Positions 362-20,413 of a stretch of 20,793 nucleotides of DNA are shown here, one piece after another. Numbering within the stretch: the stretch's first letter is position 1; each line of letters starts with the position of its first letter. The stretch lies in NCBI GenBank assembly GCA_039794085.1, contig JBDIWC010000059.1, forward strand, positions 1 to 20,793, written 5' to 3'. The stretch is from Gemmatimonadales bacterium (lineage in GTDB: Bacteria > Gemmatimonadota > Gemmatimonadetes > Gemmatimonadales > GWC2-71-9). The position numbers were made by a program, and so were the translations under genes. The notes beneath the pieces were generated by a model. The model saw only the letters and a list, made by a program, of their open reading frames with translations. It did not search any database and was not told the origin of the DNA.

Positions 362-409
362 ACATAGGACATAGGACATGGGACGTAGGACATGGGACGT
401 AGGACATAG
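359..409 (+). repeat. Heptamer tandem array (RGGACRT x7)
   Basis: aggacat aggacat aggacat gggacgt aggacat gggacgt aggacat; same unit as at 3777-3820. Confidence 0.9.
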
Positions 410-500
410 ACCGCCGCACCCCGTGCTGGCGCGGCAGCCCGCCAGGGTGTACTCTTGCTGTCCACATTTTCCGTCACTACCCCCTGCGCTGGAGGTCCGC

Positions 501-1115
501 ATGTCCTCTTCCCACCGTCGTACCCCGGGCGATAACCCGGTTCGCGAGGCACTCGAGCAGGGTCGGGCCCAGGTCGACCTCGATCTGGAGCCGATCGCGG
601 CTGGTGAAAACCGGATGATCGGCATTGCGCTCGCTCCCGCCGCACACTCGACCGTCGACGTGGACGACAGCCGGATGCCCGCGGCCCTCCATGGCAAGGG
701 AGACGACGCCGCCATCCACCACACGATCACGGGGTGGAGTTCGATGCACCCCGACGAAATGAACAAGAGCTGGAAAACGTACTGCACTGATCCTTACTAC
801 CACGTCTCGCCGGCCGGAGTCAAGAGCGTGGATGCTGCCACGATCAAGTCCTGGCTCGGGAGCAAGGAATTCGGCGCCATCAAGGAGCGATTCGGGTACC
901 ACGCGGAGCGGAAGGTGACGATCTCCGACGTGAACATTACCCACCTCGGATCCGGCGTGGCCTGCGCCACGTACCGGCACCGGGAGGAGGGCACCAAGGG
1001 GAGGCCGATCATCGGCAACGGCGCGGTCCTGCTCCACAAGGTGAAGGGCAAGGCGGGGGCGGCACCGAGCTGGAAGATCGCCGTGGTGAGCCGGCACGAC
1101 ACCTTCGAAGCGTAA
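501..1115 (+). CDS. Hypothetical protein (204 aa) with a C-terminal NTF2/SnoaL-like domain and a ~65-aa N-terminal extension; first gene of the YcaO-TfuA operon
   Basis: GGAGG at 491-495 before ATG 501; the ORF-track start at 378 lies inside the repeat. C-terminal pattern 'VTISDVNITHLGSGVACATYR...GAVLLHK...WKIAVVS' fits the NTF2/DUF4440 sheet. Ends 18 nt before ycaO. Confidence 0.7.
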   Translation: MSSSHRRTPGDNPVREALEQGRAQVDLDLEPIAAGENRMIGIALAPAAHSTVDVDDSRMPAALHGKGDDAAIHHTITGWSSMHPDEMNKSWKTYCTDPYYHVSPAGVKSVDAATIKSWLGSKEFGAIKERFGYHAERKVTISDVNITHLGSGVACATYRHREEGTKGRPIIGNGAVLLHKVKGKAGAAPSWKIAVVSRHDTFEA

Positions 1116-1133
1116 GGGACTCCGGTCCGGGAC

Positions 1134-2279
1134 GTGACGCTGCCGGCCGCTCCCACCGCCTCCAAGCGGTATTACCAGGGAACCCACCGGACCCGTCCCC
1201 CCGAGGAGACGTGGGCCGCGATCGCCCCCGTGCTGGAGCGGGTGGGCATCACCCGGGTCGCCGATGTGACGTCGCTGGATTCCCTGGGCATTCCGGTGTA
1301 CCAGGTGGTCCGTCCCGCGAGCCGCAACCTGTCGGTGTCGCAGGGCAAGGCCGTGACCCACGCGGCCGCGCGGGTGAGCGGGACGATGGAAGCCATCGAA
1401 CTCTGGCACGCCGAGAGTCTGGAACACCTGGTTCAGGTTCTGCTCCCCCTCCGGGAAATGCAGTACGCCAATCCGATCGCCGTCGAGACCTTCAAATGGA
1501 GGCCCGACTCGCGCCTCCTCGACACCGTGCCCATGGCCTGGCTCGAAGCCACCTCCCTGACCCGGAACCGGATGGGGTGGCTCCCCCGCCAGATGCTGGA
1601 ACTCGACTTCACGGTGCCGCGGACCCTCCGGCCCCAGCCCTTTCACCTGACCTCCAACGGGCTCGCCTCAGGCAACGGCCGGGAGGAGGCGCTCGTCCAC
1701 TCCCTCTGCGAGCTGATCGAACGGCATGGACTCTACCTGGCCCACACCGGCGCGAGACCCCGGGTGCCGCTGGACCTGGACTCGATCGAGACGGACTACT
1801 GCCTCGACCTGATCCGGAGGATACACGGCGCGGGAATGCGGTGCGCCGCCCATGACCTGACCTGGGAAGTGGGGGTTCCCACGATCGTCGTGGATCTGGT
1901 GGCGCGCGACCTCCCCAACGTGTGGCGGGGCGCGGGGTGTCACCCCGACCCGTCGGTGGCGCTCTCGCGTGCCCTCACCGAGGCGGCCCAGTCCCGGCTC
2001 ACCTACATCTCCGGCGCGCGCGACGACCTCACCCAGTTCTCGGAACACCAGGACCCGGCCGGCGCATTCACCGAGTTCGTGGTCCCCGTGCCCGAGCGGC
2101 GGATGGATGAGATCACCACTCTCGCCAGCGGTGACGTCGAGACGGACCTGGGGCGCCTCCTGGACCGGCTGCACTTGAACGACTACGAGCCGTTCATGGT
2201 GGACCTGACCCGCGACGACGTCGGTGTCCCCGTGGTGATGGCGTGGATCGCGGGACTTCGCGAGGCGCCCTATGGGTGA
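1134..2279 (+). CDS. ycaO: YcaO-family protein, TfuA-associated (thioamide-forming) type
   Basis: GTHR..PEET, GITRVADVT.LD.LGIPV, SQGK, MEAIELWHAE, SNGLASGN..EEA....LCELIER, G.GCH, RALTEAAQSR..YISGARDD. No C-terminal PxPxP tail. Overlaps tfuA by 8 nt. Confidence 0.95.
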   Translation: MTLPAAPTASKRYYQGTHRTRPPEETWAAIAPVLERVGITRVADVTSLDSLGIPVYQVVRPASRNLSVSQGKAVTHAAARVSGTMEAIELWHAESLEHLVQVLLPLREMQYANPIAVETFKWRPDSRLLDTVPMAWLEATSLTRNRMGWLPRQMLELDFTVPRTLRPQPFHLTSNGLASGNGREEALVHSLCELIERHGLYLAHTGARPRVPLDLDSIETDYCLDLIRRIHGAGMRCAAHDLTWEVGVPTIVVDLVARDLPNVWRGAGCHPDPSVALSRALTEAAQSRLTYISGARDDLTQFSEHQDPAGAFTEFVVPVPERRMDEITTLASGDVETDLGRLLDRLHLNDYEPFMVDLTRDDVGVPVVMAWIAGLREAPYG

Positions 2280-3792
2280 GACGATCGTTTTCGCCGGGCC
2301 CTGCCTGCCCTCGACGCCCACCGAGGAGTGGAGCGAACTCCTCTCCGGCGTGACGCTCCGGCCCCCGGCCCAACGCGGCGACATCCTGATGGCACTGGGG
2401 CAACGACCCGACACCCTCGTCATCCTCGATGGGTACTACTACTCGGTTCCGGCGGTGACTCACAAGGAACTGCTCTACGCCCTGCAGAGCGGAACCCGGG
2501 TGATCGGGGCGGCGAGCATGGGCGCGCTCCGGGCCGCCGAGATGGAGCGCTTCGGCATGATCGGCGTGGGGCGGGTCTTCGAGTGGTACCGGGACGGCGT
2601 GGTGGATGGCGACGACGAAGTCGCGATCCTCCATGCCCCCGCACCCTACGCCTACGAGAGCAGCACCGTGGCGCTGGTGGAAGTCCGCCATGCGCTGGAA
2701 CGGCTCGTCGGGCACGGGCTGGTCTCGGCGGAAGGAGCCCGCGGCCTCATCGAGGCCATCAAGCCGATCGTCTTCACGGCCCGGACCCCGGATCGCGTTT
2801 TCGGCCTGGCCGTGGAGCATCTGGGGAAAAAGGGCGCCGAGGAGTTGGGGCGGACGCTGGAGACGGGGAGCATCAAGCGGGATGACGCCCTGCTCGCGCT
2901 GAAGGCCGCCCGGTTGGATCACGTTTCCGCCCAACCGGAACCGCCCCTGGTCACCGTCTACCTCAGCCACTTCCGGGAGTGGTACCTCCGGCTGCCGGAG
3001 CAGGGGAGTGACGGCTGGGCCACGAGCCATCGGACCTTTCTGAAGGGGTGGAATGTGACCCAGATCCTTCATCCCGGGGCCCCGGAGTTCGTGACCGCCA
3101 TGCGGAGGCGGTTCCTGCTGGCGTCGGCCGCGGAGTGTGAGGGCCTGGCTCCGGTGGCGGCGGCGGTGGACAGCGCGCTCACCGGGTTGCGGGCCCATCT
3201 CGCCGGGTCGACGCTCGGTCCCCGTCTCCCGGAAGCGGAGGTGACGGAGGAGGCGAGGGTCCACGCGATGGCGGAGGCGGGGCTGCGGTGCTTCGGCTCG
3301 GTGGATGCCGCGGCCTCGGCGGTCGCGCTCCATCTTGGCCTCGACACCGGGCCCGGAGAGGCCTCGCTCCTGGAGCTGCTCGGAATCCAGGACGACCTGA
3401 TGCCGCCGTGGATGCTGGTGCGGGCCTTCGTCTTTTCGTCGGCGCTGGATGCTGCCATGAGCACCTCCGATGACGCGGCGGAGATCTATCTGGCGTTCAT
3501 CCGCCGGTCGCGGGGTTTCCGGATCGCCGAACGCGAGACGATGGCGCTGGCGGCGGAGCTCTGGTCTTGCGAACCCGACCAGGTGTCGGCGGAGGCGGCC
3601 CGTCGAGGACTGTTCCGGTCGACCCATGCTCACGGCTTTGCCCCGGGGTTCGGTGGTGCGATGGAGTTCCTGGCCCCCGCCGAGCGCATCACGGCGCCCG
3701 TCAACGGCTATGCGGCTCACCGCGCCCGGCTTCGGGACACGCCGTTGGTGCATGTGTTGGCTAGGATAGAGGAGAGAGGACACAGGACGTAG
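2272..3792 (+). CDS. tfuA: TfuA-like protein with a ~290-aa C-terminal extension
   Basis: VFAGP, PPAQRGD, ILDG.Y..VPAV.HKE, GAASMGALRAAE, GMIGVGRVF, DDEVA..H, KRDDA; translationally coupled to ycaO. Confidence 0.95.
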   Translation: MGETIVFAGPCLPSTPTEEWSELLSGVTLRPPAQRGDILMALGQRPDTLVILDGYYYSVPAVTHKELLYALQSGTRVIGAASMGALRAAEMERFGMIGVGRVFEWYRDGVVDGDDEVAILHAPAPYAYESSTVALVEVRHALERLVGHGLVSAEGARGLIEAIKPIVFTARTPDRVFGLAVEHLGKKGAEELGRTLETGSIKRDDALLALKAARLDHVSAQPEPPLVTVYLSHFREWYLRLPEQGSDGWATSHRTFLKGWNVTQILHPGAPEFVTAMRRRFLLASAAECEGLAPVAAAVDSALTGLRAHLAGSTLGPRLPEAEVTEEARVHAMAEAGLRCFGSVDAAASAVALHLGLDTGPGEASLLELLGIQDDLMPPWMLVRAFVFSSALDAAMSTSDDAAEIYLAFIRRSRGFRIAERETMALAAELWSCEPDQVSAEAARRGLFRSTHAHGFAPGFGGAMEFLAPAERITAPVNGYAAHRARLRDTPLVHVLARIEERGHRT

Positions 3793-4082
3793 GACGTAGG
3801 ACATAGGACATAGGACATAAGATGGAGGACTTCGGGAATCTCAGGGGGAGTCATCCCGAACGAAGTGAGGGATCTGAGAACGCTGCTGGGTGTACTCCCC
3901 GACGTCCGCTTTCCGACATTCGCACGTTTCACCCACCGTAACCGGGGACGCGGCCGACGGGAAGTAGACCAACCACCTTCTCAGATCCCTCGCCTGTGGC
4001 TCGGGATGACGCCCCGCGAGGTTCCCGGGGGTCCCATGTCCTAAGTCCTAAGGCCTACGTTGTCTTAACGTCCTAAGTCCTC
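3777..4082. repeat. Composite inverted-repeat element: AGGACRT heptamers, GTCA-type REP, ~95-nt spacer, inverted REP, inverted heptamers (REPIN/MITE-like)
   Basis: gtcatcccgaacgaagtgagggatctgagaa (~3850-3880) vs ttctcagatccctcgcctgtggctcgggatgac (~3978-4010); outer arms gacttcgggaatctc / gaggttcccgggggtc; heptamers AGGACRT on the left and GTCCTAA on the right. Lies between convergent genes. Confidence 0.8.
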
Positions 4083-5105
4083 CCGTCCCCCCCCCGACAC
4101 CCCCGCCCGGTAGAGATACCGCCTCACGCGCCCCGTCTCCACCCACTGCAGACTCCGGGTGGCCTCCCGGATCAACTCACGGACCAGCAGCTCATTCCCC
4201 TCCGCCTCGAACGCGGGTGCCATCTCCTCCGCCACAAGAAGCTGTCGCCGCCAGATCTCGTGCTCGTTCGCGGTGAAATCCCGGGTTGTCACCGAGAGTC
4301 CCCGCGCCGAGAGGGCCCGATGCATCCGGGTTCGCTCCGGGGTCATGGTGCCCGCGTCGGAGGACTGCACGACGTCACTCGCCAGGATGACGAGCTGCCT
4401 GCCCGGGGTGAGACACCGGACCAGGTGCCCCAGTGTGTCGTCCAGGTCGTCCGCCAGGTAGAGGGTGTCGATCGACAGGATGCAGTCGACCGGGGCCGGG
4501 ATCCGGAACGGCCCGGTGAAGTCGGCCACCTGGAACCGGAGACGATCCCGCTTGGCGCGGGTGCGTTGTCGGGCGCGCGCGATGGCCGGTGCGGCGATAT
4601 CCACCCCGGTGATGTGGGCACCCGTGGTGTCCGCCAGGTGTTCGGTGACGATCCCGTTCCCGCATCCGACGTCGAGAATGCGCCCGCCGGCGTTCAACGT
4701 GAGGGCGGCGCGCAGCGCCTCGAGTTGCTCGACGTCCAGCAGGCTGAACTGCCGGAGATCGACGCCGAACACCCGCTCGCAGAACAGACCGTAGGCGGCA
4801 CTTCGTTCGCTTCGGACCAGCCGCGCCCCGAATTCCTCGCTCAGGAGCGCGCGGCGGAGGGGGGTCGCCTGCGCGAGCCCCGACGGAGTGAGGGAACAGG
4901 GGTCGCTTCCCGTGAGGAGGCCATGGTGCTCGAGGGCCTCGAACGCGGTTGACCAATCGGTCAATTCGTCGCCGAAGAGGAGGGGGCCGTGCCGCAGCAT
5001 GGCCTCCCTGGTCGTGGCGATCGGTTCTCCCCAGGCCCAGTCCTGCGGCCGGCGCGTGAGGACCAGCGCCATGATCAGGACCTGCCGTTCCGCGATGGTC
5101 AGCAC
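4065..5105 (-). CDS. Class I SAM-dependent methyltransferase with an N-terminal winged-helix-like segment
   Basis: Motif I ILDVGCGNG, ITGVDI, ADF, DCILSIDTLY, LTPG. N-terminal 'L..HGLL......LTPSG' looks like a wHTH. Start uncertain (GTG 5105 chosen); the track start at 5339 overlaps the divergent gene. Confidence 0.85.
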   Translation of the reverse strand: MLTIAERQVLIMALVLTRRPQDWAWGEPIATTREAMLRHGPLLFGDELTDWSTAFEALEHHGLLTGSDPCSLTPSGLAQATPLRRALLSEEFGARLVRSERSAAYGLFCERVFGVDLRQFSLLDVEQLEALRAALTLNAGGRILDVGCGNGIVTEHLADTTGAHITGVDIAAPAIARARQRTRAKRDRLRFQVADFTGPFRIPAPVDCILSIDTLYLADDLDDTLGHLVRCLTPGRQLVILASDVVQSSDAGTMTPERTRMHRALSARGLSVTTRDFTANEHEIWRRQLLVAEEMAPAFEAEGNELLVRELIREATRSLQWVETGRVRRYLYRAGVSGGGREDLGR

Positions 5106-5220
5106 GTTGGGGCGTGGCCGGGTCCGGGGTGGTCCGGTGGCGGCCGCCTCCGGCCCGGAGTACCATTGAATCCCGCAAACACAGCGGGGCGGCGATTCAT
5201 CATCCTGGGAGGCCTCCGCA

Positions 5221-6060
5221 ATGAAGATTCCGGTCGACCACATCATCACGCCCGGGGGCGCTCGACACAAGTCCCGGGTCCATCGGGTGACGCGCACCGA
5301 TGTGGTGCATGCCAGCGATGGCGCCGTCCATCGCGCCACGCCCGAGGGCGCGGGTGAGAAGCTGGTTTCCCTGGGGCCCCCTCCCGCCGCCGACTCCGGT
5401 TCAGCCGTCGCGTCCGCTCCGCCGGCAGGACCGGGGTGGATTGAATCTGCCGGGTTCGGTTACCCGGATCCGCTGACCGCGTTCCGCGGTTCCTGGGAGG
5501 TGCCGCCTCCGCCGAAGATTCACGATCACCAGGTCGTTTTCCTGTTCATCGGGCTCCAGACCGACCGGAACGACGGCACCGATCTCCTGCAGCCGGTGCT
5601 GCAATGGGGATTCAACGGAACGGAGGGTGGGGACTACTGGGGGATGAGTTGCTGGTATCAACGCGGGGGGTCCGCAGAACCGCAACCACTCCTCGTGACC
5701 GGCAACTACGTCCGGGTCGAGCCGGGCGACAGGATCAACGTGGCGATCGAGCAGGTCTCGTGGCAGGGGATCCCGAGCTGGGAGTGCACCGCGACGGCCG
5801 AACCGTCGGGGACCGCGGCCACGATCCGGGTGAGCCGGACTCCCCGGTTTCGGTGGAGCCACGTCGGTTTGGAGGCCTATCACGCTCCTCCCGAACGCAG
5901 GGGGCTCTACCCCGGGGCGGGGCGCACCGGTTTCACGGGACTGTCGCTGAACTCCACGGGTGCATCGGTGACCCCGGTCTGGGAATCGGAGGTGAGGGTG
6001 CCGGGGACGGGTCGCCGGGTCGAGGTGCAGGGGGCGTCGGCCGTGGAGCTCTGTTACTGA
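5221..6060 (+). CDS. G1 (eqolisin-like) glutamic-peptidase-like / ConA-fold protein
   Basis: GGAGG RBS. 'F.GSWEVP..P....VFLFIGLQ.....LLQPVLQWG...GG.YW...WY' and 'GLEAY' give a candidate Gln/Glu dyad; N-terminal 'ITPGG..H.SRVH' is prosegment-like; no signal peptide seen. Confidence 0.6.
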   Translation: MKIPVDHIITPGGARHKSRVHRVTRTDVVHASDGAVHRATPEGAGEKLVSLGPPPAADSGSAVASAPPAGPGWIESAGFGYPDPLTAFRGSWEVPPPPKIHDHQVVFLFIGLQTDRNDGTDLLQPVLQWGFNGTEGGDYWGMSCWYQRGGSAEPQPLLVTGNYVRVEPGDRINVAIEQVSWQGIPSWECTATAEPSGTAATIRVSRTPRFRWSHVGLEAYHAPPERRGLYPGAGRTGFTGLSLNSTGASVTPVWESEVRVPGTGRRVEVQGASAVELCY

Positions 6061-8984
6061 CGTTTCTGCATGAGGGCCCGGTATTCGGACGCCCTGGCGG
6101 GTTGTCCCGAGCGTTCGTAGAGCATCACGAGGGGACGGAGCGCCGCGGTGGCCGAGAGGCCCCCCACGGAATTGGCGATGACAGTGTGACTCTCCAGCAG
6201 CATCGGCTCCGCCTCCGCGTACCTCCCTCGCACCACCAGACACTTTCCGAGCACGCTCCGGATCTCCGCGATGGCCCAGTCGGGGCGGGAAATCCGGGAG
6301 CCGATCTCCAGTGCCTCCCGTGCGATCGGTTCCGCGTCGTCGCATTTCCCCTGGTCCGCCAGAATGCTGGCGACGTTCTTCATCGCTCCGACCGTGAAGA
6401 GGTTGTCGGCCCCGAATCGTCCCTGGAAGATGGCGAGAGCGTCCCGGAACAACGCCTCGGCCCGCGTGAACTCACCCTGTTCCTGCAGCAGGAGTCCCAG
6501 GGCGGAGGACCCCACGCCGACGGATTGGTGATCGTCGCCGAGCAGGCGGCGATATACCGAGAGCGCCGAGTCCACGAGTGGTCTTGCCTCGGCGTATCGA
6601 CCCTGGGCGGTCAATACGTGGCCCAGATTGTTCATGGCATCGGCGACCCGGCGGTCCCCGGGACCATAGGCGTCCCGCGTGAGGACGAGTGCTTCTCGCA
6701 GAAGGGTCTCGGCTTCCGTCAGGCGGTTGAAATAAAACTGGACGCTGGCCTGGCTCAGGAGCGCCACGCCCAGGGCGGGGCCCTGGAGCCCGTGCTGCCG
6801 GTAGATCGCGATGGCCCGGGCACCGACCGTGTCTCCCCCGGCGTAGTCCCCCTTGAGCCACCGAATCCGACCCAATTGCTGAAGAATGTCCGCTACCTGT
6901 GGCGCGTCCGGTCCGAGCTGCGCGGTAGCCAGGTTCAGAGCGTGGACCGTTTCCGTCTCCGCCGTGTCGAGATCACCGGCATCGGAGTGGGCGAGCCCCA
7001 GCAGCTTCTTCCCCTCGGCCACCTCCAGGGAGGCCTCTCCGTAGAGCCGTTGGCGAATGCCGAGTGACTGCTCGAGAAGGGGTGCGGCGACGGCGGGGAG
7101 CCCGAGACCCAGGTAGACCTGCCCCATGCTCCCCATGAGGGCCGCCTGCACGTCGGGCTGGTCCTCCAACCCCGTACTGATCCGGGCGGCGCCGGCATCG
7201 AGGATCTCCCGGGCGGTGACAGTGTTGCCCTTCGTCTCCCCGGGATCGGCCACCCGGAAGAGATCGATCAGGAATTCCGTCACCCGGCGCGAGGTCTCGG
7301 CCTCGCGGTTGGCTCGAGCGCTCTCGAGGGACACACGGCGGAGCTGCACCCCGGTCGCGAGAGCCACGAGGAGGAGTCCCGCTCCGACGAGACCGGCCCA
7401 CCTCAACCGGCGTCGGGTGCGAGCGGCCTTCGCCAGGGCGAGTGCCTCCTGGGCCCGGGCGGCGTGGCGGGCATCGAGGTGGCGGAGACAGTCCGCGAGG
7501 GCTCTCGGATCGGTTCGGCGTTCGGGGTTCCCGTCCACCGCCGAGGCGATGTCCTCGCGTACCAGCGGATCCTCGACATCCCGCTCCCAGCCCGATCCGA
7601 GGGCTCGGGTCAGGTCGCCCACCACCATCTGGTACATGACCACGCCCAGCGAATAGACATCCGCGTGGACCGTCGAGGGCTTCCCCTCCATCAACTCCGG
7701 GGCCATGTAGAGGCGGGTGCCGGCCCCGGCCGTGCCATCCGGTGTCAGGGGGCTCGCCGCGTCGAGTTCGGTGAAACCGATCTCGGTGATCCCCGCATCT
7801 TCCAATCGGGCGCGATCGGTCACCAGCCCGATGCCGAAATCGGCCAGTTGCGCCTGCGGTTCTCCCCGCCCGTCCGTGCTCATCAGGATGTTGGATGACT
7901 TGATGTCCTTGTGGAGCACTCCGACCGAGTGCGCCGCGGCGAGAGCATCGGCGATCTGGGCCACGATCTCCAGGCGGGTAGACATCGGAACGGCGGCCAG
8001 ACCGCCCTGGGCCCTGGCCCATTGATCGAGATTCCCCGCGGCAGACCACTCGGCTTCGAGGAAATAGGGAGCCTCCTCGAAATTCCAGTCGAGAATGCGG
8101 ACGATGTCCCGCCGGTCCCCCAACTCCTCCTTGAGCAGCCGAACGAGGGTCACCTCCCGCTTGAGACCGGTCAGCCGCTGTCCGTCATAGCAGAACTTGT
8201 AGACTCGCTTCTCGTGGGTCTTCTTGTGCTCGGCACGCCACACGTCCCCGAACCCTCCGGTGCCGACCTTCTCCTCGAGGACCCAATTGGGACGGTGAGG
8301 CACTTCGATGCCCGGGGCGGGCCGCCATCCGGTGATGGTGTCCAGGTCGAGTATCCGCTGGACCTTGTCGGTGTCGGCCGGGGGAGCCAGCGGAGCCACT
8401 CCCTCCCGCCCCACCTCATACACCTCGACTGCCTCCGCCACCCCCTGGAACACGTAGGATCCGTGAGCCAGCCAGGTGAGGTCGGTCCCGGCGCCATCAG
8501 TCTGTGGTGTTCCCCGGCGCGCCAGGTCGAAGGCCACCCGGGTCAGGAGGGTCTGCCGTCCGGACGCCACCGACATGATCCGCGCCACCATCGGCTTGGC
8601 GATTCCCTCGACTTCGACCGGCTTGGCCCCTCGAGCCACGTCGGCCGGAGTGTTGGCTCGCCGAATGACCTCGCCGACGTGGATCCCGACCCGGGCCTGG
8701 AGAGGAACCTGAAGTGCGTCGCTCAGGGCGGCGAGCTGGTCGTGGTAGGCGATCGCGTAGCGAACGGCGCTGATGGGCCGGTCGAACAGGAGGAGGAAGC
8801 CGTCGGTCTTGTCGATCTCCTGGCCGCCGTACTGGGAGAGGAGGTCCCGCGCCACTCGGTCGTGCTGCTGGAATACGGTGGCGGCCCGCTCATCACCGAG
8901 CTGTTCGGTGAGACGGGTGCTCCCAACCAGGTCCGAGGCCAGGAGGGTGCTGAGCAGGGGCGAGGACATCGTGGTGTCGGACAT
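6054..8984 (-). CDS. Class III nucleotide cyclase-like domain + Hanks-type Ser/Thr kinase + TM helix + TPR repeats
   Basis: Cyclase: SDLVGST, IDKTDG, RVGIHVGEV, EGIAKP..AR. Kinase: GTGGFG, VYK, HKDIKSSN, DFG, YMAPE, DVYSLG. TM: WAGLVGAGLLLVALA. TPRs such as NNLGHVL..QGRYAEA. Start at ATG 8984 or 8969; the upstream 62 codons of the track ORF are translated repeats. Confidence 0.92.
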   Translation of the reverse strand: MSDTTMSSPLLSTLLASDLVGSTRLTEQLGDERAATVFQQHDRVARDLLSQYGGQEIDKTDGFLLLFDRPISAVRYAIAYHDQLAALSDALQVPLQARVGIHVGEVIRRANTPADVARGAKPVEVEGIAKPMVARIMSVASGRQTLLTRVAFDLARRGTPQTDGAGTDLTWLAHGSYVFQGVAEAVEVYEVGREGVAPLAPPADTDKVQRILDLDTITGWRPAPGIEVPHRPNWVLEEKVGTGGFGDVWRAEHKKTHEKRVYKFCYDGQRLTGLKREVTLVRLLKEELGDRRDIVRILDWNFEEAPYFLEAEWSAAGNLDQWARAQGGLAAVPMSTRLEIVAQIADALAAAHSVGVLHKDIKSSNILMSTDGRGEPQAQLADFGIGLVTDRARLEDAGITEIGFTELDAASPLTPDGTAGAGTRLYMAPELMEGKPSTVHADVYSLGVVMYQMVVGDLTRALGSGWERDVEDPLVREDIASAVDGNPERRTDPRALADCLRHLDARHAARAQEALALAKAARTRRRLRWAGLVGAGLLLVALATGVQLRRVSLESARANREAETSRRVTEFLIDLFRVADPGETKGNTVTAREILDAGAARISTGLEDQPDVQAALMGSMGQVYLGLGLPAVAAPLLEQSLGIRQRLYGEASLEVAEGKKLLGLAHSDAGDLDTAETETVHALNLATAQLGPDAPQVADILQQLGRIRWLKGDYAGGDTVGARAIAIYRQHGLQGPALGVALLSQASVQFYFNRLTEAETLLREALVLTRDAYGPGDRRVADAMNNLGHVLTAQGRYAEARPLVDSALSVYRRLLGDDHQSVGVGSSALGLLLQEQGEFTRAEALFRDALAIFQGRFGADNLFTVGAMKNVASILADQGKCDDAEPIAREALEIGSRISRPDWAIAEIRSVLGKCLVVRGRYAEAEPMLLESHTVIANSVGGLSATAALRPLVMLYERSGQPARASEYRALMQKRQ

Positions 8985-9037
8985 CAGAGGGAAAATGATG
9001 CAGGGAGCAGGTTTGCGCGAGGGGTGGGGGGGTAGGG

Positions 9038-9281
9038 GGGTGTTGGGTATTGGGTGTTGGGTATTGGGTGTTGGGGAATTAGGGCAATGACCAATGACCA
9101 ATGACCAATGACCAATGACCAATGAACAATGAACAATGAACAAGGGGGCAGGGGATTCGACGATCCTCATCCCCGGCGAACGCCGGGATCCATGGACCGT
9201 TCCGGCACCGTCGCACCCTCCTACGTCCTATGCCCTTGTTCTCTGTCCTCCGTCCTCTGTCCTCTGTCCTGCGTCCTCTAC
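9038..9281. repeat. Mosaic of heptamer arrays (GGGTRTT x5; AATGACC x5 then AATGAAC x3; CCTCTGT-like x~7) around a REP palindrome
   Basis: Arrays at ~9038-9075, ~9086-9141 and ~9220-9281; REP tcatccccggcgaacgccgggatccatgg at 9167-9195. Confidence 0.9.
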
Positions 9282-9283
9282 AG

Positions 9284-10414
9284 CTACCGCGCCAGCCGCC
9301 CCTCGGGCTGGAACACCGACCAGGCGAACCAGAAGTGGTTCCCATGGGGCACAGCGGGGAGCCGCTTGCCCGCCAACTCTCCCTCCACGGCCCGGCCCAG
9401 GATGTCCCAGGTGGAACCGGTTTCCTTGTCGCGGAAGCGGCCCGGCCCCGCCGGTGCGAAGGTGAGGGTCCGCCCTTCCAGCTGCGGCACGAAGACTCCG
9501 GTGGCCCCCACATCGCGTCCTTGGGCTATCTCGCGGGCATCGAGGGCGCTGGAGGTCCCGGGGGCCCAGAACACCACGAGGGGGGTCCCGGCGAGCCGCT
9601 CATGCCGCACCCGCTCCTTCGCCAGATTCGTGAAGGGGATGGCCAGGGAGGAATCGCCCCGGGTCACCGCCACGACCCGCTCCATGGCCGGGAGGCTTTG
9701 GTCGATCTTCCCGCTGACGAAGCCGGGGATGGGCCGCCCGCCGGGTCCGTCGTAGGAGGCGTAAGGGTTCTGCCCGTAGGGGCGGCTGTGGCCGGTCCGG
9801 CGTGACAGAACCTTCCCCTCGGGCCACGTCTCCCGAAAGGTCTTCCAACTGACCATCGGGGCGCTGATGACCGTGAGCCGGGTGCCGGTGAGCTCACCCA
9901 CGATTCCCTCGCCGGTGGCCTGTTGCCACCAGCTCTCGGTTTGACGGTCGTACATCACCATGTCGGAGTGGCGGAGACGCCCCGACACTCCGAAGGTGAG
10001 CACCCGGTCTCCCACACGACCGTCGAAGGCGATGGCGGTGTTGCAGAGGGGGCAGAAGGTGACTGTCACCGGGAGGCTCCCGATCCGGTCGTTGACGATC
10101 TCGTGCCAGATGAGCACCTGGATCGGATAGGCCCGGGCCTCGCCGCCCGCTTCGACGACCACGACCGGTTCCGGATCCTTGAGCCATCCGCCGGCCTGAC
10201 GGACCGACTCGAAGTTCGGCGAATCAATCGCCGGGATGCCATCCTTGGAGGGCCCCCCGGACACGATCTCCACCAGCGGCACACTCCGCTTGGAAAAATC
10301 GGTGCGCCACTCGCCGCTCTGTGCCTGGACGACCGAGGCGGCCATCATGCTCGCCGCGACCGTGCCCGCAACCCCCGCGATGAGCCGACGAAGACTGGAG
10401 CGCTGAACCTGCAT
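9284..10414 (-). CDS. DUF3179 domain-containing exported protein
   Basis: Signal peptide (RR..hydrophobic..VQA); GGPSKDGIPAID, RAYP...WHEIVND, TFCPLCNT (CxxC), FGVSG.L..SD.VMYDRQTESWW.Q, FWFAW..F.P. Confidence 0.92.
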   Translation of the reverse strand: MQVQRSSLRRLIAGVAGTVAASMMAASVVQAQSGEWRTDFSKRSVPLVEIVSGGPSKDGIPAIDSPNFESVRQAGGWLKDPEPVVVVEAGGEARAYPIQVLIWHEIVNDRIGSLPVTVTFCPLCNTAIAFDGRVGDRVLTFGVSGRLRHSDMVMYDRQTESWWQQATGEGIVGELTGTRLTVISAPMVSWKTFRETWPEGKVLSRRTGHSRPYGQNPYASYDGPGGRPIPGFVSGKIDQSLPAMERVVAVTRGDSSLAIPFTNLAKERVRHERLAGTPLVVFWAPGTSSALDAREIAQGRDVGATGVFVPQLEGRTLTFAPAGPGRFRDKETGSTWDILGRAVEGELAGKRLPAVPHGNHFWFAWSVFQPEGRLAR

Positions 10415-10440: not shown

Positions 10441-10550
10441 AACATAGGACGGCAGGACAGAGGACGGCAGGACAGAGGCCCCTACCGCCTACCGCCTATC
10501 GCCTATCGCCCATCGCCCATCGCCCATCGCCTACCGCCTATCCTTACCTA
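10441..10550. repeat. Back-to-back 7/8-mer arrays (AGGACGGC/AGGACAG, then CCYAYCG x~8)
   Basis: Directly visible; fills most of the gap between the Crp-like stop codon and the DUF3179 start. Confidence 0.85.
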
Positions 10551-11237
10551 CGCCGGCATCGCCGCCAACGCCGGACGTCCCCCCGAGGCGAGATCGCCAA
10601 GGTGGTCCAGATCCTGAAGCTTGATCATGCTGCGGCGGACATCCAGGGTCCCCTGTCGGCGAAGAGCCCGGAGAACCTGATTGGTGGTCTGACGGGAGAT
10701 CCCCGCCGTGGCCGCCACGAGGTCCTGGGTCAGGGGGAGATCCGTCTGCGACGCCGGATCCCCACCGCCGAGCGACCGGGCGAGGAAGAGCAGAACCGCC
10801 GCGACCCGGGATGTCGGAGGGAGCTGGACCAGGTGCCGGTGGGCCACCATGCTCCGCTGCTGGCGCTGGCCTGCCGCCGCCACCGCCCGGGCGAACGGGA
10901 GGTCGCTCGAGAAGGCACGGTCGAAGATGGGGCCGGGGATGTGGATGAGGGTGACCGGGGTCAGTGCAATCGTTTCCCAGCGCCCCTCCTGATCCGCAAA
11001 ATCGGTGGAATCATGCCCCACGATGAGGTGTCCGACGCCGTAGATCTCACTCACCACCTTGGAACGCCCCGGACGGGTGAGGAAAACACCGAGGACCCCG
11101 GCGACGACCACGGTGGCTCCGTACCGGGTTTCAGGGGCGAGAATGTCTCCCGGACCGAGGGAGCGACGGATGATCGTGGGGAGACGCAGCACTTCTGAGG
11201 TGATGTCTGGAGCCTGGCTGACCAACTTGATTGTCAT
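10548..11237 (-). CDS. Crp/Fnr-family transcriptional regulator
   Basis: C-terminal HTH 'RVAAVLL.L.....LPLTQDLVAATAGISRQTTNQVL..LRRQGTL....IKLQDLDHL'; divergent beta-barrel N-terminus; purine-rich RBS before ATG 11237. Confidence 0.88.
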   Translation of the reverse strand: MTIKLVSQAPDITSEVLRLPTIIRRSLGPGDILAPETRYGATVVVAGVLGVFLTRPGRSKVVSEIYGVGHLIVGHDSTDFADQEGRWETIALTPVTLIHIPGPIFDRAFSSDLPFARAVAAAGQRQQRSMVAHRHLVQLPPTSRVAAVLLFLARSLGGGDPASQTDLPLTQDLVAATAGISRQTTNQVLRALRRQGTLDVRRSMIKLQDLDHLGDLASGGRPALAAMPA

Positions 11238-11355
11238 GGCGCTTTTCCTTCCCATCGAGCCTGGAGGTGGGGTACCGATATTTCTGGGTTTCCTGTCTTA
11301 CACGTCGCGAATCGGATTTCGTATCTTTCGAGCTTCTCGAACCCCGGAGCGCACC

Positions 11356-19563: not shown

Positions 19564-19619
19564 AGTTGTAGGGGCGGTCCGTGGACCGCCCTAGTCTGAA
19601 GGAGCTTTGAACTTCACAC
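19558..19619. repeat. GTAG-type REP enclosed by a 10-bp inverted repeat
   Basis: GTAG-GGGCGGTCC-GT-GGACCGCCC (19568-19591), flanked by GTGTGAAGTT (19558-19567) and AACTTCACAC (19610-19619). Confidence 0.8.
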
Positions 19620-19672
19620 GTCCACGAAGTGGAGTACCTTTCGTCCTCCCATTCTCCAGGACAACCCTCGCC

Positions 19673-20413
19673 ATGTTCACCACTCTTCTGGCCGCGACCG
19701 CCATTGCCCTCCATCCAGCGCCGGCCGCCGATTCGACCGTCTACCGGGCGTTGTTCCTGCGGGCGGCACCGGGCCACCTGCTGGAGCTCATCGACCTCTA
19801 CCGCGCCCGCATGCCGGTGCATGCCGCGGCGGGGGAAGCCGAGCCGGTGTTTGCGCGGCACAGTCAGGGGGACCATTGGGATCTCCTTCTCCTCTATCCG
19901 ATCGGCACGATGGCCGAGTACTACTCGGAAGAGCGGCAGGCCCGATGGGAACGGGCGGAGAGGGAGATCAGGTACGATGGCGCGGCGTTCGACCGGGAGC
20001 GGGACCGGCTGGAGGCGTGGCGGGAGGAGTTGTTCGTGTCGGGTCCCGAGGTGGCCATGCTTCGGGAACGAAACCGGGAGGCCGGCTTCTATCACCTGGA
20101 GGTCTTCCTGGCCCTTCCCGGCCAGCGGGCCGCCCTGCTCCATCAGCGGGAGATGGAGAACGACTATCTGCGCCGGATCGGCCGGCCCGACAACCTGGTG
20201 TTCACCCGGATCGGCGGCGCGCCGTGGGATCTCTTCACGCTCGGGCTTTACCGGAATCTGCAGCACTACGCGGAGCCCTCGGCCGCGAGCGATGCCGCCG
20301 ACGACTCGGCGGCGAAGGCGGCGGGTTTCGAGAGCCGGAACACGATCGGGAGCTACCTGCGGAGCTTCCTGCAGGGGCACCATGATACGCTGTTGAACCG
20401 GGTGAGAGAGTAG
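19673..20413 (+). CDS. Secreted hypothetical protein with two internal repeats (possible NIPSNAP-like alpha/beta barrel)
   Basis: Signal peptide MFTTLLAATAIALHPAPA; repeats 'Y...FLRAAPG...GDHWDLLLL' and 'YHLEVFLALPG...GAPWDLFTL'. Confidence 0.7.
   Translation: MFTTLLAATAIALHPAPAADSTVYRALFLRAAPGHLLELIDLYRARMPVHAAAGEAEPVFARHSQGDHWDLLLLYPIGTMAEYYSEERQARWERAEREIRYDGAAFDRERDRLEAWREELFVSGPEVAMLRERNREAGFYHLEVFLALPGQRAALLHQREMENDYLRRIGRPDNLVFTRIGGAPWDLFTLGLYRNLQHYAEPSAASDAADDSAAKAAGFESRNTIGSYLRSFLQGHHDTLLNRVRE

Follow-up and report, generated by a model that had tools for sequence, protein, structure and literature searches.

The window analysed here is a 20,793-nucleotide (nt) stretch of Gemmatimonadales DNA (contig JBDIWC010000059.1 of assembly GCA_039794085.1), in which a ycaO-tfuA gene pair of the putatively thioamide-forming type stands directly behind an unannotated open reading frame (ORF) that we call ORF1, a candidate substrate of the pair. 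The features of this three-gene unit are as follows.

501-1115, + strand: ORF1, 204 amino acids (aa), candidate domain-fused substrate (leader, core, linker, NTF2-like domain)
537-593, + strand: leader-like motif of ORF1, residues 13-31, amphipathic, consensus L-Q-x-A-F-D/E-x-x-A-x-x-L-G/D-L-x-L-E-P
606-647, + strand: candidate core of ORF1, residues 36-49, E-x-R-[MTS]-[VI]-G41 followed by a variable stretch rich in Ala, Val, Ile, and Phe
684-1112, + strand: predicted NTF2/SnoaL-like domain of ORF1, residues ~62-204, with conserved P98, R137, Y158, E162, N173, W191, and K/R198
1134-2279, + strand: ycaO, 381 aa, TfuA-associated and putatively thioamide-forming type (PF02624, E 2e-66)
2272-3792, + strand: tfuA, 506 aa, TfuA domain (PF07812, E 4e-41) plus a C-terminal extension
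About 2944-3771, + strand: C-terminal extension of TfuA, ~280 aa, specific to this branch
358-409 and 3762-3819: TAGGACA repeat arrays that flank the unit, the second overlapping the last 31 nt of tfuA

The three genes are co-oriented, with an 18-nt gap between ORF1 and ycaO and an 8-nt overlap between ycaO and tfuA. An earlier, sequence-only reading of this DNA had described exactly this packing around a YcaO-TfuA pair, and both the ORF coordinates and the two profile matches listed above agree with it. A ribosome-binding site (GGAGGT) at 491-496 precedes the ORF1 start at 501, and homologues align from M1 at this position, which rules out a start at 378. Both ycaO and tfuA are single-copy in their own genome, of which this is the sole YcaO, and the G+C content of the unit is 65 to 69%, versus 66.8% genome-wide. 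Close relatives carry the unit on single contigs that cover 420-3793 (run X6) and 372-3793 (run X8), and therefore the gene order is not an assembly artefact. Run X6 is an RNA library, and we rejected it as expression evidence because its contig depth, flat over genes and spacers, resembles that of a DNA run. We found neither a promoter-like site nor a meaningful terminator.

The same reading had the unit bounded by repeat arrays. These arrays exist, at the positions given above, but they are not specific to the unit: there are 361 period-7 tandem arrays in the genome (87 per Mb) of several unit types, 66 of them of the TAGGACA type. Since the trait is genome-wide, the flanking arrays carry no meaning for the unit, and a role as unit boundaries or mobility signals was ruled out. 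Further period-7 arrays lie in the window at 9038-9075, 9085-9143, 9225-9279, and 10481-10542, and the arrays of the window are mostly intergenic. The spacer between the convergent tfuA and methyltransferase genes also holds inverted repeats, one pair nested in the other (3833-3859/4001-4027 and 3867-3889/3969-3991); contig depth is high in this spacer, which suggests that the element at 3833-4027 is a dispersed repeat.

Both enzymes retain conserved motifs. The closest solved relative of the YcaO is MJ1094/6pe3 (E 6.6e-58), and S82/E86/E89, S174-N175-G176, E193/E196/R197, and Q286/R288 are invariant in the 12 YcaOs compared. TfuA matches 6xp8 (E 4.7e-42), with PF07812 spanning residues 53 to 172, and retains K65 and S82; these two residues and those of the YcaO ATP-binding motif are presumably catalytic. 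Based on the adjacency of ycaO and tfuA and on these intact motifs, the locus classifies as a TfuA-associated, putatively thioamide-forming YcaO system. The C-terminal extension of TfuA is conserved within its branch and has no match in Pfam, NCBIfam, Atlas, or PDB sequences; nor can it be aligned with the extensions carried by TfuAs whose precursors differ (hhalign probability, 0.1%). It may serve to recognize the substrate.

Sequence family and predicted fold of ORF1

ORF1 has no match in Pfam or NCBIfam and belongs to an unnamed protein family. A word-based search found 5 homologues among 341 candidates, and an exhaustive search found 78 clusters (50% identity, E <= 1e-3), of which 72 are 183 to 225 aa long. 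The family alignment has 82 rows; P0028, P0054, P0063, P0083, and P0084 were dropped because they fall outside 180 to 235 aa, and the repeat-rich, 521-aa P0083 is a spurious match.

Conservation along this alignment is uneven. A variable N-terminus (0.63 bits per column) is followed by the leader-like motif (1.55 bits per column), in which F18, A22, L27, L29, and E30 are found in 76%, 78%, 74%, 67%, and 66% of the rows, respectively, and in which an AlphaFold2 model has a moderately confident helix at residues 13 to 21. Residues 36 to 41 have 1.8 bits per column (G41 in 89% and R38 in 63% of rows) and a predicted local distance difference test score (pLDDT) below 50. That the best-conserved block of the N-terminal region is also the least structured is a pattern that would fit a segment recognized by another protein. 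Residues 42 to 49 are variable (1.08 bits per column) and small-hydrophobic, being rich in Ala, Val, Gly, and Ile, and Cys makes up 1% of the candidate core. Past a Pro-rich linker (0.8 bits per column), the NTF2-like domain (residues 68 to 199) rises again to 1.65 bits per column.

The AlphaFold2 model, made with 84 sequences, has a mean pLDDT of 85 and block means of 92 to 98 from residue 71 on. In a structure comparison, residues 62 to 204 best match NTF2-like chains (Z 13.5; root mean square deviation, 2.6 A over 125 residues), and these residues are thus predicted to adopt the cone-shaped alpha+beta fold of NTF2/SnoaL-like proteins. DUF4440 is matched weakly by 10 of 84 family members, and Atlas features give a score of 0.95 for NTF2/SnoaL-like. 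The tied top fold matches include CaMKII hubs, scytalone dehydratase, and proteins of unknown function, so the fold by itself assigns no function. The earlier guess of an NTF2/SnoaL-like domain therefore holds for residues ~62 to 204, and what had been called a leader-like N-terminus resolves into a conserved helix and a conserved, unstructured Gly motif.

In eight distant members (P0070, P0076, P0077, P0080, P0087, P0088, P0030, and P0081), the NTF2 domain is the same but the motif before it is another, roughly E-R-x-x-R-S-[YF]-S-x-G-E-x-R, and these proteins may be modified by a separate set of enzymes.

Linkage to ycaO-tfuA and the search for other precursors

The three genes are coupled and co-occur elsewhere. 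A pattern scan of genome contigs with ORF1 gave 73 pattern matches and one confirmed locus, L002, from a Gemmatimonadales metagenome-assembled genome; this is the locus nearest to that of the window and has the order ORF1, ycaO, and long tfuA, plus a convergent methyltransferase gene. Independently of ORF1, Joint Genome Institute (JGI) metagenomes were scanned for a TfuA motif drawn from this branch, which gave 11 loci. Two of these (L028 and L031) hold no DNA upstream of ycaO, and in all nine that do, an ORF1 homologue lies immediately 5' of ycaO, as it also does in genome G422. Seven of the nine upstream homologues are long matches at 28 to 32% identity, and the other two are cut by a contig end. 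With the duplicates L024 and L027 merged, and likewise the closely similar L021, L026, and L029, ~7 lineages remain, including the window and L002. When 12 YcaOs were placed in a tree, the nine NTF2-linked sequences formed one side of a branch with 100/100 support, opposite three outgroups.

These outgroups (G001, G335, and G381) come from the phylum, in which 5 of 401 genomes have TfuA. In G001 and G335, peptides of 82 and 75 aa lie directly before ycaO, and in G381, a Nif11-type precursor (TIGR03798, E 8e-15) lies upstream of it. Since these sister loci fill the slot before ycaO with precursors, ORF1 occupies the precursor slot. The ORF1 homologues also diverge faster than their enzymes, with identities of 28 to 40% versus 51 to 60% for the YcaOs in 20 of 21 pairs, the remaining pair being near-copies.

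In the reverse direction, which is a weak test, both genomes with a strong profile match (G422 and the window's own, G000) are linked. When the 401 phylum genomes were searched with an 84-row profile, the only strong match was in the genome of the window itself; three weak matches (E 4e-4 to 1e-3), in which only the NTF2 part is covered, were taken to be generic NTF2 proteins. No homologue was found among 60 relatives searched, 1 of 145 genomes in the order of G422 matched, and plasmids searched with P0025 gave no match. A pattern drawn from close ORF1 alignments matched 279 stretches of the JGI metagenomes, none of which was confirmed, because the motif varies.

Searches for a conventional precursor were negative. 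The three-gene unit contains no short precursor, transporter, or ThiS gene, as had been noted from the sequence, and we found no conventional precursor of 20 to 120 aa near YcaO-TfuA. Among 303 reading frames in the flanks of the 11 loci, there is no small ORF common to the lineages; the methyltransferase gene is the only one that the window has in common with other loci. In the genome of the window, a profile search found no second match to the leader and core (next best, E 0.05), and no protein of 30 to 111 aa shares three words with residues 14 to 62. ThiS (3 matches) and ThiF (2 matches) are encoded elsewhere in this genome. Two of the checks that the sequence-only reading had proposed for its view of ORF1, linkage of homologues to ycaO-tfuA and a search for a short precursor elsewhere, thus both came out in its favour.

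ORF1 as a candidate substrate

The earlier reading had left ORF1 as either a substrate or a partner of the enzymes, and the combination of a conserved helix with an unstructured Gly motif favours the substrate branch. Fast divergence has been described as typical of RiPP (a peptide synthesized ribosomally and modified post-translationally) substrates (PMC13063428); the faster divergence of ORF1 relative to YcaO counts for a substrate for this reason. Based on sequence and predicted structure, we consider it probable that ORF1 is the substrate of the adjacent YcaO-TfuA. The more specific form, a RiPP-type precursor whose core is followed by a predicted folded NTF2-like domain, is thioamidated near Gly41, and is then released, has, in our judgment, slightly less than an even chance of being correct.

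In such a precursor, the amphipathic leader (residues 13 to 31) would dock on YcaO or on the branch-specific extension of TfuA. TfuA, by what is known of its family, would free sulfide from thiocarboxylated ThiS encoded in trans, and YcaO would use ATP to convert at least one backbone amide of the flexible R38-H49 segment to a thioamide (+15.977 Da per thioamide), with the modification placed at or just past the near-invariant Gly41. More tentatively, the NTF2 domain might bind, shelter, or further process its own modified core, the methyltransferase, where present, might methylate the product, and proteases might excise a short hydrophobic thioamide peptide. Because there is no transporter and genes for kinase-TPR or cyclase proteins are often near, one may speculate that the product is an intracellular signal rather than an exported antibiotic. 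A further version, which we regard as unlikely, makes the NTF2 fold the precursor's own enzyme or receptor, cyclizing, cleaving, or capturing the thioamidated core, with the product signaling through the cyclase/kinase-TPR proteins; if true, this would amount to a new class of fused thioamide pathway in uncultured bacteria, with the NTF2 fold as a self-processing domain new to RiPPs and with ~77 core variants supplied by nature.

Known TfuA-YcaO RiPPs (thiostreptamide S4, thiovarsolins, and Std) have in common with this locus the adjacent ycaO and tfuA genes and a substrate-candidate gene directly upstream (PMC8153245, PMC6511847, PMC13174530), as well as a candidate core rich in small hydrophobic residues and an optional methyltransferase; the thiostreptamide core includes Val2, Met3, and Ala5 (PMC8153245). 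In contrast, ORF1 is ~200 aa long, its core is internal, and its C-terminal domain is predicted to be folded. It is also unlike the thioamitides (thioviridamide type): at 204 aa it is protein-sized and lacks the C-terminal Cys, the locus has no transporter gene, and no dehydratase or decarboxylase gene for a macrocycle is found among the 16 window ORFs scanned. In the order of its parts, ORF1 resembles the fused burpitides, in which the core is N-terminal to a folded domain (PMC11253845), and is the reverse of the NHLP/Nif11 precursors, in which the folded part is an N-terminal leader (PMC12537861). It differs from all of these, and from borosins, in that its domain is NTF2-like with no known catalytic activity and YcaO and TfuA are separate genes. 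In fungal borosins, the core peptide is carried on a protein with a folded domain. By the autocatalytic logic of borosins and burpitides, the attached domain modifies its own core; in ORF1, conserved polar residues are the only feature seen that would suit such a role.

Several points weigh against the precursor reading. The TfuA motif used for the metagenome scan was drawn from the ORF1-linked branch, so the linkage test covers only that branch, and genomic context is known only for 11 homologue-bearing loci, compared with 78 clusters. Distant clusters (e.g., P0070, P0077, and P0087) differ in their N-terminal motif and may adjoin other enzymes. Conservation of the NTF2 domain matches that of the leader (1.65 versus 1.55 bits), which makes ORF1 more than a carrier. 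Since the core is internal, its release needs two cuts; no conserved cleavage motif is evident in the family, no transporter is evident, and the peptidase candidate of the window is weak and was not found in the 11 metagenome loci. Finally, the search of 30- to 111-aa proteins found no stand-alone short version of the leader/core motif, and the leader-core interpretation therefore lacks the confirmation that a split form would give.

In another reading, the substrate stays whole. Its N-terminal arm would be modified and the thioamide would tune the NTF2 protein, an alternative that we regard as rather unlikely, and that estimate includes the variants in which ligand or metal binding, oligomer contacts, or TPR-kinase binding is tuned. 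The uniform length and architecture of the family (72 of 78 clusters at 183 to 225 aa), the conserved NTF2 residues, and the lack of a transporter or a consistently linked protease at the loci are consistent with it, as are the CaMKII hub domains that rank with the best fold matches, since an oligomer displaying modified arms would then be possible. The nearest solved YcaO, MJ1094, is of the McrA-modifying type. Like McrA, a target of the methanogen YcaO-TfuA, and uL16, a target of the Escherichia coli YcaO, ORF1 is a protein-sized candidate with a conserved Gly in the site (PMC13063428). However, ORF1 is co-encoded with its enzymes, bears a separable leader-like motif, sits in the precursor slot, and evolves fast with a variable site, unlike uL16 (PMC13063428), and its common fold shows no function. 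The uL16-modifying YcaOs act without TfuA (PMC13063428), unlike this locus, and the enzymes of the window fall short of the equivalogs for McrA thioglycine formation (YcaO, 194 versus 365 bits for TIGR03266; TfuA, 173 versus 235 bits for NF033432). If ORF1 is nevertheless modified as an intact protein, it would be the third thioamidated protein after McrA and uL16, and one that is TfuA-dependent and bacterial.

The partner branch, in which ORF1 is a tailoring enzyme or binding protein (of the NTF2 cyclase/dehydratase type) docked on YcaO-TfuA by its N-terminal motif and the substrate is encoded elsewhere, seems to us unlikely. The conserved polar residues R137, Y158, E162, N173, and K198 and the dehydratases among the fold neighbours would suit an enzyme, and a docking arm would likewise be expected to be conserved and unstructured. 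However, neither the flanks nor the genome yielded another precursor, the sister loci hold evident precursors in this slot, and the variable hydrophobic stretch past the conserved motif is unexpected for a plain docking arm.

Iota-carbonic anhydrases have a His-His-Ser-Ser motif. It is highly improbable that ORF1 supplies sulfur, whether in place of the ThiS that the unit lacks or by making sulfide, e.g., as an iota-carbonic-anhydrase-like carbonyl sulfide hydrolase. In its favour are the lack of ThiS in the unit, a weak iota-carbonic anhydrase profile match (E 0.24), and a fold match to 7c5x (Z 11.1); against it, dozens of NTF2 folds score equally high, that motif is not seen in the C-terminal strand, none of the 82 family members ends in the Gly-Gly of ThiS-like carriers, and ThiS and ThiF are encoded in trans.

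The RiPPER window is 20 to 120 aa (PMC6511847), and the global YcaO-TfuA survey ran RiPPER at standard settings (PMC8120280), so protein-sized substrates fell outside such surveys. NTF2, SnoaL, and DUF4440 have no matches in the one searchable supplement file of PMC8120280, and the literature titles and abstracts searched contain no report of an NTF2-fused YcaO-TfuA substrate, with most subscription papers lying outside that search. Only two thioamidated proteins, McrA and uL16, have been described (PMC13063428). The system of the window is real and conserved, and it is a variant of YcaO-TfuA thioamidation that has apparently gone undescribed, in which the candidate substrate is the size of a protein and the candidate site is defined. 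Its three genes make a compact candidate, for which a site near Gly41 is predicted and natural variants number in the dozens. A substrate role, if true, would mean either a new precursor architecture (leader, core, and folded domain) or a third thioamidated protein, would give a role to two unannotated domains (the NTF2 family and the TfuA extension), and would provide an enzyme pair that thioamidates a flexible tag on a folded protein, a useful tool.

Neighbouring genes and related loci

Two genes near the unit, a methyltransferase gene and a cyclase-kinase-TPR gene, were left out of the sequence-only reading. These and a gene between them are listed below.

4065-5105, - strand: class I S-adenosylmethionine methyltransferase, convergent with tfuA, start uncertain (GTG 5105 or ATG 5072)
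5221-6060, + strand: possible G1/A4-type peptidase (PF01828, E 0.008, below the curated cut-off)
6054-8984, - strand: cyclase-kinase-TPR protein with a TIGR04510-like N-terminal domain (E 3.9e-69 over the first ~205 of 814 positions)

The methyltransferase is an accessory part that some loci have and others lack. Of 7 informative loci, 3 have its gene convergent with tfuA (the window, L002 at 45% identity, and L024 at 50% over 78 aa), and it is not the gene downstream of tfuA in L021, L023, L029, and L031; in the phylum it occurs in 1 of 401 genomes, that of the window. In three related loci, L021 (9316-9885), L029, and L031, an unannotated same-strand gene of ~170 to 190 aa with no Pfam match follows tfuA instead, and in L023, what appears by eye to be a nonribosomal peptide synthetase-like gene (1597-9821, - strand) is convergent with tfuA.

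A linkage between the peptidase-like ORF and the unit is not established. It has a 40% homologue in G422, on a different contig, and weak homologues in 3 of 170 other genomes. A possible adjacency of peptidase and methyltransferase in G422 was suggested by a 23-residue frame at a contig end, for which BLASTP gave no alignment. In L040 of G422 (2021-6220), a class III cyclase-AAA-TPR gene comes after the peptidase homologue, which has by eye a lipoprotein-like signal.

The cyclase-kinase-TPR gene is found in 3 of 401 phylum genomes, always within 2.3 kb of tfuA (window, 6054-8984; L014, 10042-12963; L017, 3892-6807); in G001 and G335 the two genes overlap at the tfuA stop, and in the window they are 2.3 kb apart. 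This linkage holds despite differing YcaO branches and precursor types. The gene was not found in G422, nor was an orthologue found in the 11 metagenome loci, and therefore it is tied to the YcaO-TfuA loci of this lineage, not to the NTF2 type. Against TIGR04510 ("putative peptide modification system cyclase"), it scores 231 bits, with a whole-protein cut-off of 400. It resembles that family in having the cyclase-like domain beside a peptide-modification locus but differs in being fused to a Ser/Thr kinase and in having YcaO-TfuA as partners. Members of TIGR04510 occur together with NHLP-type precursors. Immediately upstream in L002, L021, L022, and L026 are ordinary kinase genes, but these may be common in such organisms.

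Elsewhere in the window, a Crp-type regulator gene (10548-11255, - strand) lies 1.5 kb past the cyclase-kinase gene, and a 268-aa ORF with no Pfam match is found at 19607-20413 (+ strand).

A second unnamed system, in L014 (7188-7436 and 5700-7139) and L017 (9415-9642 and 9667-11115), consists of an FAD/BBE oxidoreductase, a 75- to 82-aa peptide, ycaO, tfuA, and the cyclase-kinase-TPR gene. Its peptides have a common N-terminal motif, a weak DUF5818 match (E ~0.04), and a Cys-containing tail. In G381 and G419, a Nif11-type precursor accompanies ycaO-tfuA (L015, 6738-7142 to 13097; L016, 10265-11437), with a ThiF/MoeB-like gene (by eye) nearby on the opposite strand and further tailoring genes downstream.

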